Shown here piece after piece: positions 1-38,088 of a stretch of DNA of 64,000 nucleotides; the stretch's first letter is position 1, and every line of letters starts with the position of its first letter. Under the pieces are notes generated by a model, which worked only from the letters and a program-made list of their open reading frames with translations, was not told where the DNA came from and did no database searches. The stretch is from a virus (Duplodnaviria > Caudoviricetes). The translations under genes were made by a program, and so were the position numbers. Where the stretch lies: the IMG/VR virus record IMGVR_UViG_3300021963_000022. One strand, 5' to 3'.

Positions 1-2471
1 ACAGGACTACTGCGAGTTACTACATCGTTTAGTCCTAACTGTCCGTAACTATTAGAGCCCCATGCCCACAATGTGCCATCTATTTTTTTAGCAAAAACAC
101 TACTACTAGCAACATCATCGCCACCTGTGCTAACATAATCCCAATTAGTATCAGTACCAATCTGGGTCGGACTTGATCGAGATACAGTAGAGATCAAACC
201 TAAAGGCGGTCCGCCATAGCCTGTAACCCATAGTGTACCATTTGTTTTAACAATGTACATGTTAACAATACCTGCTCTTAAATTTCTCCAGTCAGTATTA
301 CTACCAATTTGAGTTGGGCTACTACGATACACTTGATCGTTTAGTCCTAACTGTCCCCATGCATTGCTACCCCAGGTCCATAAACTACCATCTTTCTTGA
401 TTGCCGCGGCGTAGATGCCGGCCGACACAGTAATAGCTTCCCAATCAGAACCATTTCCTATTTGCACAGGGGCACTACGGTATATCGTATCACCCAAACC
501 CAGTTGACCTGAATCATTAGGACCCCAAGCCCATAATGTACCGTCAGTTAAAAGTCCTAATGACATAGCTTGTGTAGCATTTGGCCCGCCGCTTAATACA
601 GTTTTCCAACTTCTAAGCTGACCGACTTGTACCGGACTAGACCTGTTGATAGTGGAGTTTATACCTAGTTGCCCTTCTTGATTAGCACCTACTGAATATA
701 AATATAATTCAGGATTAGGAGTATCTACAGGTATAACACTATCACTTGCGCTACTTGGTGCACTAGTACCTATACTATTAGTTGCTGTTACTGTAAATGT
801 ATAACTTGTGCCTGGTATTAAGTTATTAACAATAATACCGCCACCACCTGACTTGTTAGATAGTGTACCTGTATATCCACCCGGTGTGCTTGTTGCAGTA
901 TATGTTACATAACTATATGTACCTGTAACAATTGGAGCCGCAAAGCTAACACGTACGCTAGTAGATGATACTGCTTCTACAGCTAATATAGTTGGTGCAC
1001 TTGGTGCAGTTTTACTACCATTAAGAGCCATGACATAATTTTCACCTGAACCAACACTATTAACCCAAGTTGTAGAACTACCCACTTGTACTGGACTACT
1101 ACGATATACTAAATCATTTTGTCCTAGTTCTCCTGTTTGATTTCCGCCCCAACTCCACAATGTGCCATCTGTTCTGTTTGCAATAGTAAATTGAGTAGAG
1201 GTAGTAGTTACTACTTTTCCGGCAGTAGTTATATTATTCCAGTTAGTATCTGTTCCTATTTGTACTGGACTACTTCTGTTAATAACAGTATTGTCACCCA
1301 CACTACCAAACTGATTATTACCCCAGCCCCATAGTGTACCATTAGTTTTTGTAGCAAATACACTAGTTTGTGTTGTAAAAAATCCACTAGACGATTTAAC
1401 AATCTTATACCAATTAGTTAGTCCTCCAATTTGTACTGGACTACTACGTAATATTACAGAATTAATACCTAACTCTCCGTTGCTGTTGTTACCCCAAGAC
1501 CAAAGTGTTCCGTTAGTACGAGTTGCCAATGCATTGTATGCCCCCCCACCTATATTAACCCAATCAGTATCATTTCCAACTTGTATAGGGCTATTGGCAC
1601 CAATTGGTGAATTTGTACCTAGTTGTCCATACGTATTATCACCCCATGCCCATAGAGAGTTATCTGTTTTTATGCCCAAACCAAAACTTTGAGTTTGAAA
1701 TATATCAACCCAATCAGTGTCTGATCCAATTAATACCGGACTAGATACTCCAAATAATAGTCCTATTGACGCTCCATTCAACGGTCCACTTCCAAATTGA
1801 CCCCATGACCAAAGAGTACCATCAGTTTTTATTGCAGTAGATGTATAGTAACCTACACCAACGTTATTCCATGTAGTTAATGCCCCAACTTGAATAGGGG
1901 AACTTACATAACTTACACCACTACCTAATCCAAATCCGCCATTATCAGCACGTCCACCCACAGCCCATAAAGTGCCATTATTTTTTGTTGCTAATGTATA
2001 TCTGTATCCTACAGCTAGCGTACTCCAATCTCCAGTTGATCCTATTTGTGTAGGACTACTTCTAGGTACGGTATCACTTAACGCTAATTGATAATATTGA
2101 TTTGTACCCCATGAATAAGGATTTATAGCAGGAGCACTTGTTGTAATGCTATTACTTGCACTACTTAAAGAACCACTACCTATACTGTTTGTTGCATATA
2201 CAGTAAATGTATAACTTGTGCTTGGTACTAATCCGTTTACTGTGATAGTACCAGAATCACTTTGTACTAATGTACCTGTGATATTGCCCGGTGTACTTAT
2301 TGCTGTATAGCTAATGATAGTACTATTACCGTTACTTGCAGGGGCAGTAAATGCTACCGTAGCACTATTTGCACCTGTTGCAGTTGCTGTACCTATAGTA
2401 GGTGCATCTGGCACATTAGTAGTAGGTAATGCGTTAAATCCGCCTGTAATCGTTATTCCGGTAAAATCCAT
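1..2471 (-). CDS. RCC1-repeat / fibronectin type III protein (partial, runs off the left edge; absent from ORF track)
   Basis: Manual translation from ATG at 2471 gives MDFTGITITGGFNALPTTNVPDAPTIGTAT. It has two FN3-like modules (e.g. SYTFTVTATNSIG) and many RCC1 repeats (DGTLWAWGxNxxGQLGLxDxxxRSSPxQIG). I saw no stop in the stretches I translated. An ATAAATA motif lies upstream. Confidence 0.85.
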   Translation of the reverse strand, partial: MDFTGITITGGFNALPTTNVPDAPTIGTATATGANSATVAFTAPASNGNSTIISYTAISTPGNITGTLVQSDSGTITVNGLVPSTSYTFTVYATNSIGSGSLSSASNSITTSAPAINPYSWGTNQYYQLALSDTVPRSSPTQIGSTGDWSTLAVGYRYTLATKNNGTLWAVGGRADNGGFGLGSGVSYVSSPIQVGALTTWNNVGVGYYTSTAIKTDGTLWSWGQFGSGPLNGASIGLLFGVSSPVLIGSDTDWVDIFQTQSFGLGIKTDNSLWAWGDNTYGQLGTNSPIGANSPIQVGNDTDWVNIGGGAYNALATRTNGTLWSWGNNSNGELGINSVILRSSPVQIGGLTNWYKIVKSSSGFFTTQTSVFATKTNGTLWGWGNNQFGSVGDNTVINRSSPVQIGTDTNWNNITTAGKVVTTTSTQFTIANRTDGTLWSWGGNQTGELGQNDLVYRSSPVQVGSSTTWVNSVGSGENYVMALNGSKTAPSAPTILAVEAVSSTSVRVSFAAPIVTGTYSYVTYTATSTPGGYTGTLSNKSGGGGIIVNNLIPGTSYTFTVTATNSIGTSAPSSASDSVIPVDTPNPELYLYSVGANQEGQLGINSTINRSSPVQVGQLRSWKTVLSGGPNATQAMSLGLLTDGTLWAWGPNDSGQLGLGDTIYRSAPVQIGNGSDWEAITVSAGIYAAAIKKDGSLWTWGSNAWGQLGLNDQVYRSSPTQIGSNTDWRNLRAGIVNMYIVKTNGTLWVTGYGGPPLGLISTVSRSSPTQIGTDTNWDYVSTGGDDVASSSVFAKKIDGTLWAWGSNSYGQLGLNDVVTRSSP

Positions 2472-32826: not shown

Positions 32827-32862
32827 GCATTATTTATATAGTGCAAGCATGCCTGATAATTT

Positions 32863-33129: not shown

Positions 33130-33147
33130 ACAACTATTTATATAATT

Positions 33148-35633: not shown

Positions 35634-36221
35634 CTAATTCTGCCAAATCCTAGAATGTTTGGGTACTCCTGCTAACAAATATTCCATTTGGTCAGCAAGT
35701 ATTGTTCTATGTTGTAATATCATATTTTCATAATGTGAAGGTACGTACGGAGAATAAAGCAATTCCATACGTACTTCTTTTAAACTTTTATGACCTTTTT
35801 TGCTGTTACAATCTTTACAAGCAGTAACAACATTCATCCAAGTGTTTTCACCACCTTTGCTTTTTGGAACAATATGGTCTCTACTTAACATATGATAGTT
35901 AGGAAAGTGTTCACCGCAGTATGCACATACATGACGGTCACGACCGAACAATGTTTTATTGCTTAATGCTACACATGCATGTTTGTATGGATTAAATCCG
36001 TGACCTTTGATAGCGATGATACTAGATGCTTCTAAGTAGCTTAATGTACCGTCGTTTTGTATACCACCGCGATATTTAGCCACAATATTACCCATTGACC
36101 ATGCTATGGCATCTTTTGCTTTATAGGTAATTGCGTCATCATTTGATATCCATTGCCGGGGAACTCCCGAGATATCTAGTGCTAGAACAGCCATGTAGTA
36201 CTCCTTTTCTGTTATTATCAC
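35634..36221 (-). CDS. HNH endonuclease
   Basis: RDRHVCAYCG, DHIVPKSKGG, NVVTACKDCNSKK; true start probably 36194 (MAVLALD). Confidence 0.9.
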   Translation of the reverse strand: MIITEKEYYMAVLALDISGVPRQWISNDDAITYKAKDAIAWSMGNIVAKYRGGIQNDGTLSYLEASSIIAIKGHGFNPYKHACVALSNKTLFGRDRHVCAYCGEHFPNYHMLSRDHIVPKSKGGENTWMNVVTACKDCNSKKGHKSLKEVRMELLYSPYVPSHYENMILQHRTILADQMEYLLAGVPKHSRIWQN

Positions 36222-36241: not shown

Positions 36242-36316
36242 TGGCGGGTCCTGCAGGAATTGAACCTACATCCCGAAGTTCGAAGCATCGTATTCTATCC
36301 ATTGAACTAAGGACCC
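36242..36316 (-). tRNA. tRNA-Arg(TCG)
   Basis: Loop CT-TCG-AA, one mismatch in anticodon stem, CCA. Confidence 0.88.
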
Positions 36317-36321
36317 TATAA

Positions 36322-36473
36322 AGGTGGGAGCCTAACTATCTTATTGTTAATAAGCCTCGTTAGATTGTCTCGTATAGGCAAGTTTACACACCCGTCAATC
36401 ATACTATAGTGTCATCACAGTTAACCCCACTGTGACTAGATTGACAGGGACTCAAACCTATCGTCTATCCCAT
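36322..36473 (-). ncRNA. candidate multibranch RNA between tRNA-Gln and tRNA-Arg(TCG)
   Basis: Closing TGGGA/TCCCA; 10-bp helix with a U-G wobble that pairs only on the minus strand; further hairpins. Confidence 0.6.
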
Positions 36474-36476
36474 AAC

Positions 36477-36550
36477 TGGCAGAGGGTACAAGAATCGAAC
36501 TTGTGATCTCGGAATCAAAATCCGATGTTATGCCATTTAACTAACCCCCA
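36477..36550 (-). tRNA. tRNA-Gln(TTG)
   Basis: Loop TT-TTG-AT, G73, CCA. Confidence 0.93.
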
Positions 36551-36557
36551 ATAAATC

Positions 36558-36634
36558 TGGTAGCCTCACTGTGACTCGAACACAGGACCCCCGCCTTATC
36601 AAGACGGTGCTCTAACCAACTGAGCTATGAGGCT
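36558..36634 (-). tRNA. tRNA-Ile(GAT)
   Basis: Loop TT-GAT-AA, CCA. Confidence 0.95.
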
Positions 36635-36638
36635 ATAA

Positions 36639-36713
36639 TGGTGGATGTAAGTAGATTTGAACTACTGACCTATTCCGTATGAAGGAATTGCACTACCGCT
36701 GTGCTATACATCC
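36639..36713 (-). tRNA. tRNA with CAT anticodon (probable elongator Met)
   Basis: Loop TT-CAT-AC, fully paired cloverleaf, CCA. Confidence 0.85.
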
Positions 36714-36792
36714 TGGTACCCCTGATCGGGTTTGAACCGACAACTGGCGCTCTCTCTTGAAGAACCGACTTTTCCTATTTGTCTACAGGGGC
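36714..36792 (-). tRNA. atypical tRNA, Leu-like D-arm, ambiguous anticodon (CAA or AAG register)
   Basis: Acceptor GCCCCTG/CAGGGGT, T arm and CCA intact; anticodon arm GGTTCTTCAAGAGAGAGC is non-canonical. Confidence 0.6.
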
Positions 36793-36798
36793 ATTACT

Positions 36799-36875
36799 TG
36801 GGGTGCTTGATGGGATTCGAACCCACGTATATCGGAATCACAATCCGAGGTCTTAACCGCTTGACGACAAGCACC
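36799..36875 (-). tRNA. tRNA-His(GTG)
   Basis: G-1:C73, loop TT-GTG-AT, CCA. Confidence 0.95.
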
Positions 36876-36876
36876 A

Positions 36877-36888
36877 TGGTGGAAACGG
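36877..36888 (-). pseudogene. orphan tRNA 3' end (CCGTTTCCACCA)
   Basis: Acceptor strand CGTTTCC is exactly complementary to GGAAACG at 37497-37503. Confidence 0.7.
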
Positions 36889-36978
36889 TGGAGGAAGATA
36901 ACAGAATCGAACTGTCACCTATTCATCATAAGTGGGACGGTTTTCAAGACCGTGTCCGCGCCATGCAGCCTATCTTCC
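36889..36978 (-). tRNA. tRNA-Ser(TGA)
   Basis: Loop CT-TGA-AA, long variable arm, atypical D-arm, CCA; 5' end overlaps the HNH stop. Confidence 0.88.
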
Positions 36979-37422
36979 ATTGTTTCTATTTTTAGACTTA
37001 TATGTAGGGAGTTGCGAATCGCAATTACTACACACAAATCTTAAATTTTCTAAACGATTGTCATTATTAATCCCGTTAATATGGTCAAGTATTAACGGCA
37101 TTGGTTTATCTTGCCATTCAGGTCCTATATTACAGCAAGCACATTTGTACTCTATTAAGTTTTTTGATTTTATTCTTGCTTTAATACTATGCCGTGCATA
37201 TGTAGAATTTTCACAAAACACCTCTGCATCGGGATATAATATATCCCATTTAGCATGACGCCCTAATTTTTTACCTGTATTCCAAGCAATATGTCCTTTT
37301 TGTGCTCCTGCTTTAGCTGAATGCTTGTGTTTAATTTTATTTGGATTACTATGACATGACATTTCATGTGCTTTTAGCGATCCTTTGTTATTTATTTCTC
37401 TGTTACAATGTGGGCAGTTCAT
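36970..37422 (-). mobile_element. free-standing HNH homing endonuclease
   Basis: CPHC zinc knuckle; LILDHINGINNDNRLENLRFVCSNCDSQ HNH motif; ATAAATA and AGGA upstream. Confidence 0.9.
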
Positions 37423-37473
37423 AATAGTTTCCTTACTCTTATTTATGCTTTATAGCAATAATTTGACATTTTG

Positions 37474-37503
37474 ATGCTATAAACCTGACTCTGCCACGTT
37501 TCC
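37474..37503 (-). pseudogene. 5' fragment of a tRNA-Ser-like gene
   Basis: GGAAACGTGGCAGAGTCAGGTTTATAGCA: acceptor strand plus Ser-type D-arm, then sequence breaks off. Confidence 0.7.
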
Positions 37504-37509
37504 ATAATA

Positions 37510-37586
37510 TGGTAGAAGCAGTGGGATTCGAACCCACGACTCTCGGATTAAAAGTCCGATACTCTAGCCAACTGAGTTATGCTTCC
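37510..37586 (-). tRNA. tRNA-Lys(TTT)
   Basis: Loop CT-TTT-AA, CCA. Confidence 0.95.
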
Positions 37587-37592
37587 ATATAT

Positions 37593-37669
37593 TGGTGCGA
37601 CCGGAAGGACTTGAACCTCCGACTCCCTGTTTCGTAGACAGGTACTCTAATCCACTGAGTTACGGTCGC
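37593..37669 (-). tRNA. tRNA-Arg(ACG)
   Basis: Loop CT-ACG-AA, CCA. Confidence 0.95.
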
Positions 37670-37734
37670 ATTCTAAAACATACTTTGGGGATTTCACTTA
37701 ACGCCTCCCTAACTCAAAGTATGTTTTAGAATGC
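37668..37734. repeat. perfect 20-bp inverted repeat abutting the first tRNA of the array
   Basis: GCATTCTAAAACATACTTTG (37668-37687) / CAAAGTATGTTTTAGAATGC (37715-37734). Confidence 0.9.
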
Positions 37735-38088
37735 CGTGTATCTCTACACGACACGATAGGGTTATACCCTACCCAGTAGTCTTACTCTTTGTGTTATCGC
37801 CACAAATTTCATATATACTGTCCGCCCATTCTATACATTTTGCGCTGTATCACGGCTCTCGTTGCCTGTTCACGCTGTCTATCAAGTGATACCAGTCTGC
37901 TCGTTAGCTTTCTTAGTAGCCATATGATAGATCCTAGCACGGTCGATTTTATTCTGTATCAACTGTGCTAAATCTTCCTTTGTCAAAACATGATTGCTAA
38001 ACCAATCTCGTTTGTCTTCAGAAGTTTTGTATTGTATCTCTTTGTCCATTTATTGTCAAATTTCCTTTTGTTGTATTTTTACAACGCT

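Follow-up and report, generated by a model that had tools for sequence, protein, structure and literature searches.

We analysed a tRNA slot in a 64,000-nucleotide (nt) stretch of viral DNA (IMG/VR record IMGVR_UViG_3300021963_000022; the whole stretch is referred to below as the window), which derives from an uncultured large phage and carries 27 tRNA genes on its minus strand between 29.3 and 37.7 kb. In this slot, a resident tRNA-Ser(UGA) gene is cut down to its first 32 and its last 12–14 nt, and an HNH endonuclease gene followed by a complete tRNA-Ser(UGA) of very different sequence lies between the two pieces. The resident gene exists intact at the same place in relatives of the phage. 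We consider it probable that a free-standing homing-endonuclease cassette, composed of a leader, the HNH gene, and the replacement tRNA, targets tRNA-Ser(UGA) genes and was copied into the resident gene. Hereafter, the replacement tRNA-Ser(UGA) is called O-type and the GGAAACG-type resident tRNA-Ser(UGA) is called N-type. The L-numbers (L001, L005, and so on) are labels of the compared contigs and loci, and L005 corresponds to IMGVR_UViG_3300042460_000724.

The resident tRNA-Ser(UGA) gene and its two remnants

The elements of the slot are given below from high to low coordinates. Their positions and their minus-strand orientation, as proposed in an earlier sequence-only reading of this stretch, were confirmed.

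37510–37586, minus strand: tRNA-Lys(UUU), the left flank of the invaded slot (ARAGORN; Rfam tRNA, 72.7 bits); the same neighbour is present in L021 and L017
37472–37503, minus strand: 5' remnant of the N-type tRNA-Ser(UGA), positions 1–32 (acceptor strand, D-arm, and start of the anticodon stem; blastn-short and local alignment)
37423–37471, minus strand: cassette leader, 49 nt, with a linker, the conserved motif CATAAATAA (37447–37439), and a Shine-Dalgarno-like AAGGA (37434–37430)
36970–37422, minus strand: HNH homing-endonuclease gene, 150 amino acids (aa), with an N-terminal C2HC zinc finger and a C-terminal His-Me finger (PHROG and alignment)
36889–36978, minus strand: O-type tRNA-Ser(UGA), 90 nt, with an encoded CCA, an atypical D-arm, and a long variable arm (ARAGORN)
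36877–36888, minus strand: 3' remnant of the N-type tRNA-Ser (last T-stem base, 3' acceptor strand, discriminator A, and CCA), 12 nt, or 14 nt (to 36890) when the CA shared with the CCA end of the O-type tRNA is counted
36799–36874, minus strand: tRNA-His(GUG), the right flank (ARAGORN; Rfam tRNA, 59.8 bits), identical in L005 and nearly so in L021 and L017

Six spacer bases separate tRNA-Lys from the 5' remnant, which begins GGAAACGTGGCAGAG, and the 3' remnant reads CCGTTTCC-A-CCA (36888–36877). The final HNH codons, GGA AGA TAG, are positions 1–9 of the O-type tRNA, with the stop codon TAG (36972–36970) at positions 7–9. The gene and the tRNA thus overlap by 9 nt, which bears out the earlier remark that the 5' end of the tRNA runs over the HNH stop codon. 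An identical layout was present in independent metagenome contigs (complete in L001 and truncated by the contig end in L006), which indicates that it is not an assembly artefact. Among isolated phages, a megablast search with the locus gave matches to tRNA-Lys only and no close relatives.

We compared the two remnants with intact N-type genes, for which a pattern scan of IMG/VR for tRNAs with the N-type acceptor stem and D-arm start returned 51 contigs. The 5' remnant matched the intact N-type consensus at 24/25 positions (E value 4.5e-7; blastn-short in a 1.9-kb context) and at 29/32 positions in a local alignment. A continuation of this remnant past position 32, into an anticodon arm with deletions, was not significant in comparison with shuffled sequences (fraction 0.76). 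The 3' remnant matched N-type positions 79–92 at 14/14 positions when the shared CA was counted (E value 0.007; blastn-short). These results indicate that the resemblance of the two pieces to an N-type gene exceeds chance.

The sequence-only reading had predicted that relatives lacking the HNH gene would carry an intact tRNA-Ser(UGA) between tRNA-Lys and tRNA-His that matches both fragments, and such genes were found in L021 and L017, two syntenic contigs among the 51. The tRNA order of L021 is Arg(acg), Lys, Ser(UGA), His, Met, Ile, Gln, Arg(tcg), Thr, Asn, and Arg(tct), which matches that of the window, and the order of L017 is Lys, Ser(UGA), His, Met, Ile, and Gln. In both contigs, the Ser gene is an intact N-type gene (9174–9261 in L021) that ends ...CCGTTTCCACCA immediately before the same tRNA-His, and the flanks align to the window.

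An alternative is that the two pieces are a chance resemblance, an assembly chimera, or a split tRNA whose halves are united at the RNA level; the only feature in its favour is that the 3' piece is short (12 nt). It is opposed by the syntenic intact alleles of L021 and L017 and by the repetition of the layout in independent contigs. Furthermore, the pieces amount to 44–46 nt in total and together cannot form a tRNA, because the anticodon arm, the variable arm, and the T-arm are missing, and a permissive Rfam scan of 36300–37800 detected no intron family. We therefore regard chance, chimera, and split tRNA as ruled out as far as sequence evidence goes. A group I intron in the tRNA gene was also rejected, since the remnants do not add up to a complete tRNA and no intron match was obtained.

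The second invaded locus and related copies

Viral and metagenome contigs were searched with the O-type D-arm and with a neighbouring release-factor-like (RF-like) gene. These searches identified a second locus in both states. The empty allele, L104, consists of tRNA-Ala, an intact tRNA-Ser(UGA), and the RF-like gene. The filled allele, L092, consists of tRNA-Ala, a 28-nt 5' remnant, a homologous leader, an HNH gene (79% amino acid identity to that of the window), the O-type tRNA, and the RF-like gene. The 28-nt remnant of L092 matches L104 at 27/28 positions, including the distinctive GGAAACT acceptor of that locus, which indicates that the 5' remnants are local and did not travel with the cassette. 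Both loci are broken at the same tRNA coordinate, at about positions 28–32, on the boundary between the D-arm and the anticodon stem.

Other contigs carry the O-type tRNA together with a different nuclease. In L070, L086, and L098, the nuclease has 205 aa; its first 60 residues are 60% identical to those of the window protein, and its C-terminal domain is different. We call this domain PD-(D/E)xK-like, a designation for which a match of the L070 protein to PHROG 15427 'endonuclease' (8e-9) and a PD...E-x-K-like pattern recognised by eye are the sole support; Pfam returned nothing usable for the domain. As in the window, the last codons of the open reading frame (ORF) of the 205-aa nuclease are GGA AGA TAG and overlap the O-type tRNA, which is followed in these three contigs by N-type positions 40–90 with two internal deletions. 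In L093, only the end of a 205-aa-type nuclease gene is present; the O-type tRNA comes next, and then a 3' stub (25 nt) left by a tRNA-Ser whose acceptor differs. The window, L070, and L093 thus carry three different 3' stubs. L097 retains only the last ~25 nt of an HNH gene (20/25 positions) in front of the O-type tRNA, and L087 carries a third nuclease, of the HNH type, whose stop codon abuts the O-type tRNA. In L071, a small ORF directly precedes the O-type tRNA, which fills the Lys-Ser-His slot. The same small ORF is found in L005, where it is followed by the leader and then by the HNH gene, exactly at the 5' edge of the O-type tRNA. A 12-nt N-type trace in the L005 leader (GGTTTATTG-AAC) is borderline, as 2.5% of shuffled sequences reach it, and is taken as a hint only.

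The remnants in the window and L092 are nearly undecayed although the HNH copies are saturated at synonymous sites, which indicates that the invasions were separate events and were recent relative to the age of the element. The earlier proposal of a mobile cassette inside an older tRNA-Ser gene is accordingly supported by the intact alleles, the second invaded locus (L104/L092), the three 3' stubs, and the homologues in Karamvirus.

In regard to isolated phages, the nearest homologues of the window HNH protein are those of the Karamvirus phages EnA02 (L002) and KKP_3262, which share 52% identity over 97% of the length and the same N-terminal domain. In both phages, the HNH gene lies between tRNA-His and tRNA-Ser(UGA), with its stop codon 1 nt before tRNA-Ser. 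The spacer between tRNA-His and tRNA-Ser is an empty 7 nt in six related Karamvirus genomes and contains a GIY-YIG nuclease in two others. Presence/absence polymorphism at the same site in collinear relatives is therefore seen in three comparisons: the window with L021 and L017, L092 with L104, and EnA02 and KKP_3262 with the six empty Karamvirus sites. As a separate observation, the 7-nt spacer of Karamvirus is a hotspot that accepts either the HNH nuclease or a 204-aa GIY-YIG (Seg-like) nuclease (L002, EnA02; L059, EnC15; L060, fGh-Ecl04). An immunity polymorphism in the Karamvirus tRNA-Ser that tracks the HNH gene was looked for and not found; the D-loop variant GAGCTGG occurs in empty sites too.

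More distant homologues are found in tRNA arrays, often against a tRNA-Leu. The homologue in L035 (1713–2237, minus strand; 48% identity) overlaps the 5' end of tRNA-Leu(UAA) (1642–1730, minus strand) by 18 nt, that in L061 ends 3 nt before tRNA-Leu(UAG), and those in L063 and L064 also abut tRNA-Leu genes. In Atu_ph07 and LR745208, the homologue abuts a convergent tRNA-Leu. These positions suggest that the nuclease family is linked more widely with class II tRNA genes.

Several further features of these arrays were recorded. L005 contains a similar case that involves tRNA-Lys (L005:2007–2745), in which an atypical tRNA-Lys(UUU) (2007–2080) is followed by another HNH gene (2141–2719; PHROG 14736, 6e-25). 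The end of this gene runs into an orphan 3' end, ~19 nt long, of a normal tRNA-Lys, which matches the end of the window tRNA-Lys at 17/19 positions; here, the replacement tRNA is upstream of the nuclease. In the window, tRNA-Leu(AAG) (36714–36792, minus strand) lies between tRNA-His and tRNA-Met and is absent from L005, L017, and L021, where Met directly follows His. This tRNA scores only 37 bits in Rfam, has an irregular anticodon region, and may likewise have been inserted recently. Between tRNA-Arg(UCG) and tRNA-Thr, the window array contains a further HNH endonuclease gene that is unrelated to the first (35634–36221, minus strand; Pfam HNH_5, 8.5e-18; HNH, 6e-15). Finally, a small release-factor-like protein with a GGQ motif (124 aa; L070:6570–6941, loci L101–L180) occurs in at least 257 viral contigs, and its gene very often starts 10–25 nt after the last tRNA of an array. 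This protein may be a phage peptidyl-tRNA hydrolase or a ribosome-rescue factor tied to tRNA arrays.

The nuclease gene and the replacement tRNA

The window HNH protein matched PHROG 10822 'HNH endonuclease' (1.2e-28) and PHROG 14736 (2.2e-17), and its match to Pfam HNH_3 (E value 8.3e-5) scored 22.6 bits, under the cutoff of 24.8 bits. In an alignment of six HNH homologues, C94, H114, and N119 were invariant and the pattern CxxC ... DH ... N ... N ... CxxC was kept. The window protein has this pattern as CxxC - LDHINGxNxDNRLxNL - CxNC, so that the catalytic motif and two CxxC zinc-binding pairs are present. The N-terminal 60 aa resemble a C2HC zinc finger, and the matches to C2H2 zinc fingers were weak. 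A GIY-YIG domain is not present, as the Pfam and PHROG matches are to HNH and zinc-finger families only. Between the window gene and the L005 copy (83% identical), the ratio of nonsynonymous to synonymous divergence (dN/dS) was 0.09 at a synonymous divergence (dS) of ~1.08, which indicates that the HNH gene is under strong purifying selection.

The HNH ORF is free-standing, with its own start codon, a Shine-Dalgarno-like sequence, and a leader that is homologous among the cassette copies of the window, L005, and L092. A motif GATAAATAAATCAAG, which is similar to CATAAATAA, precedes the PD-(D/E)xK variant nuclease, and the leader may carry a candidate promoter. A scan of the HNH upstream region for sigma-70 promoters found none. 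The late-type motif that the sequence-only reading had placed before the HNH gene is present in part: the motif CATAAATA agrees with the T4 late-promoter consensus at 7/8 positions, and it is not the exact octamer TATAAATA. Independently, the T4-type late octamer TATAAATA is depleted in the window (4 copies observed and 13.9 expected from shuffled sequences), with no exact copy at the HNH leader. Two of the four copies are on the tRNA strand within the array (32831–32838 and 33135–33142, minus strand), and one stands directly before the ORF 32826–32344.

The O-type tRNA was called tRNA-Ser(tga) by ARAGORN and is a class II tRNA with a long variable arm. Its D-arm can be drawn in two ways. One has A8, a D-loop of ≤7 nt, and, at the base of the D-stem, a G10-A mismatch; the other is a Sec-like D-arm of six pairs with one G-A mismatch, a 5-nt loop, and the single linker base A8. 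In Rfam, tRNA-Sec, whose threshold is 47 bits, gave the best match within the clan, with 38.4 bits, and the score for RF00005 was masked by clan competition. The statement that the cassette contains a complete tRNA-Ser(UGA) therefore holds according to ARAGORN, with the correction that the D-arm is unusual and that Rfam reports the gene only as a tRNA-Sec below threshold.

The O-type D-arm was invariant in 31/31 contigs found, including the L073 variant, which has a wholly different, compensated acceptor stem. The O-type gene of L005 is identical to that of the window at 90/90 nt, while the adjoining HNH genes have diverged to the dS given above. All 25 of 25 cloverleaf pairs are formed in all 4 O-type variants from viral contigs, and at five of the pairs, of which three belong to the acceptor stem and two to the variable arm, both partners have changed, a result reached by 0/500 shuffles. 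These results indicate that the O-type gene encodes a real, constrained RNA and that the tRNA and the nuclease gene are both under purifying selection.

Proposed mode of entry and relation to known systems

The favoured reading assumes a mixed infection, in which the nuclease would nick or cut the N-type tRNA-Ser genes of co-infecting phages. The break would be repaired from the cassette-bearing genome, and the nuclease gene and the O-type tRNA would be copied in together. Short tRNA halves or microhomologies could serve as repair arms; the right-hand join in the window shares only CA. The O-type gene would be spared from cutting, since it differs from the N-type gene throughout the part 5' of its anticodon arm, and it would restore UCN decoding, which would make splicing unnecessary. 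The displaced 3' part may later have been trimmed to positions 40–90, 66–90, 79–92, or none, by deletions between the O-type and N-type sequences, which resemble each other. In regard to the overlap of stop codon and tRNA, processing of the O-type tRNA by RNase P would strip the stop codon from the nuclease mRNA and keep the nuclease scarce. For T4, an RNase P cut at the 5' end of tRNA-Arg that parts the last codon of segB from its stop codon has been described and read in the same way (PMC2330249). The overlap had been thought to be a device that holds the nuclease and the tRNA together; by comparison with T4 segB/tRNA-Arg, it is better read as a brake on expression.

Several points weigh against a cassette that homes to N-type genes. 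The target, the cut site, and the immunity of the O-type gene are all features that we infer by comparing sequences, and both N-type cleavage and O-type immunity are putative. Some N-type alleles, such as L104, have an anticodon arm identical to that of the O-type tRNA, and any discrimination would therefore have to depend on the D-arm side. The right-hand junctions are heterogeneous and look like microhomology or illegitimate joins with later deletions rather than clean homing, so that homing driven by ordinary homology is only putative. The Karamvirus nuclease is inserted in the 7-nt spacer outside an intact native tRNA, with no tRNA polymorphism that tracks its presence. A comparison of L005 with L071, in which the same small ORF stands directly before the O-type tRNA, gives the impression that the nuclease was simply inserted at the 5' edge of that tRNA. 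Finally, about half of the O-type contexts are without any nuclease. Since this is so and since the Karamvirus nuclease replaces nothing, the pairing of nuclease and tRNA is frequent and not obligate.

The last three of these points are also those that favour an explanation in which the nuclease, as in Karamvirus, would be directed to the 5' boundary of tRNA-Ser(UGA) genes. The O-type tRNA would then be the native neighbour of the nuclease in the donor and not an immunity allele, and the window would be the product of ectopic recombination between the donor and an N-type genome, with no specific cutting of N-type genes. We consider this explanation unlikely. Against it stand two independent loci that share the tRNA coordinate of the break and have 5' remnants of local origin, and the N-type stubs that stand beside the cassette in at least three contexts are hard to obtain without targeted breaks in tRNA-Ser genes. 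It is also conceivable that the O-type tRNA is a selected cargo, which provides resistance to a tRNA-cleaving host defence or supplies codons, and that the role of the nuclease is limited to promoting recombination or amplification locally. In favour of this, the O-type tRNA combines perfect conservation with an unusual structure and persists after loss of the nuclease (L097 and L071), and both SegB-driven tRNA amplification and a widespread association of SegB with tRNAs have been published (PMC13096335). However, we obtained no evidence for a defence that targets tRNA-Ser, no tandem amplification is present in the window, and the shared break point inside N-type genes is left unexplained. 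Selected cargo, which partly overlaps with the favoured reading, thus seems quite improbable as the explanation in its own right, and we retain the entry of a nuclease-encoding cassette into N-type tRNA-Ser(UGA) genes as the probable course of events.

The closest functional parallel is SegB of T4/T6, a free-standing GIY-YIG homing endonuclease that is encoded in a phage tRNA cluster and recognises a conserved tRNA-gene motif (PMC2330249; PMC13096335). SegB spreads itself and neighbouring tRNA genes at the cost of the tRNA region of a rival phage (PMC2330249). Moreover, it drives amplification of tRNA-Tyr under Septu pressure, and SegB homologues are statistically associated with tRNAs (PMC13096335). 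Like SegB, the window nuclease is free-standing in a phage tRNA array and co-oriented with the tRNAs, and its ORF ends at the 5' end of the tRNA that follows. Unlike the GIY-YIG enzyme SegB, it is an HNH/His-Me finger protein with a C2HC zinc finger, and its sister copies are PD-(D/E)xK-like; it would thus work like SegB without being a member of that family. Furthermore, SegB lies between tRNA genes, whereas the window unit lies inside a tRNA gene of which both ends are left as stubs, and it brings a replacement of the same isotype and very different sequence.

HNH-type site-specific nucleases encoded in a phage tRNA cluster, for which low expression through processing of the tRNA precursor was proposed, are known from 2004 work as cited in PMC2330249. 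As far as the account in PMC2330249 goes, they resemble the window nuclease in type and in genomic position, and that account describes neither a broken target tRNA nor a replacement tRNA. In the archaeon Caldiarchaeum subterraneum, a recombinase-type element is present at the tRNA-Thr(GGU) locus, along with tRNA introns (Sugahara et al. 2012, PMC3293823). In that locus as in the window, a mobile element separates an orphan tRNA fragment from a complete, same-isotype tRNA, and the states before and after insertion are found in the population. Unlike the Caldiarchaeum locus, the window represents a phage, with an HNH nuclease and no intron.

A mobile endonuclease ORF in the fungal mitochondrial gene atp6 of Allomyces macrogynus, said to have been described by Paquin, Laforest and Lang in 1994, reportedly brings a replacement gene end with it. 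There, the nuclease ORF likewise reportedly moves with a copy of part of its target gene; the function passes to the incoming copy, the displaced part stays as a pseudogene fragment, and no splicing is involved. It differs in that the target is protein-coding, only the C-terminal part is replaced, in frame, and the setting is an organelle, whereas in the window the target is an RNA gene, a whole foreign copy is supplied, and the setting is a phage. It is already known that phage tRNA clusters contain nucleases and that a stop codon can overlap the 5' end of a tRNA (T4 SegB). The insertion inside a tRNA gene together with a replacement copy, and this nuclease family, are new; full-text literature searches found no description of this arrangement in phages, which is not proof of absence.

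A wider proposal can be put forward only tentatively. The copies described above may belong to a modular homing family of large freshwater phages that is specific for tRNA-Ser(UGA), in which a shared C2HC zinc finger would direct targeting and HNH or PD-(D/E)xK-like domains would be interchangeable. Such elements would enter at the boundary of the D-arm and the anticodon arm, and a nuclease-immune tRNA-Ser of remodelled structure, with a Sec-like extended D-stem, would take over decoding; the overlap would make maturation of the tRNA and translation of the nuclease mutually exclusive.

Homing endonucleases in phage tRNA clusters are known, and their entry into tRNA genes and the reshaping of these genes are documented for very few cases. 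The contigs compared here form a natural series, with intact alleles at two loci, fresh invasions with nearly undecayed stubs, trimmed stubs, a swapped nuclease domain, and loss of the nuclease with the tRNA left in place. They also provide a candidate for a new tRNA-gene-specific nuclease, whose putative target, a tRNA-Ser gene of 90 bp, would be broken near positions 29–40. The cassette could explain structurally odd tRNAs and unannotated tRNA fragments of phage tRNA arrays, and it would extend to phages and HNH enzymes a strategy of replacing what is destroyed that is reportedly known from fungal mitochondria. If the proposal of a modular family is true, such cassettes would be a general route by which phage tRNA arrays gain atypical tRNAs and orphan tRNA fragments.

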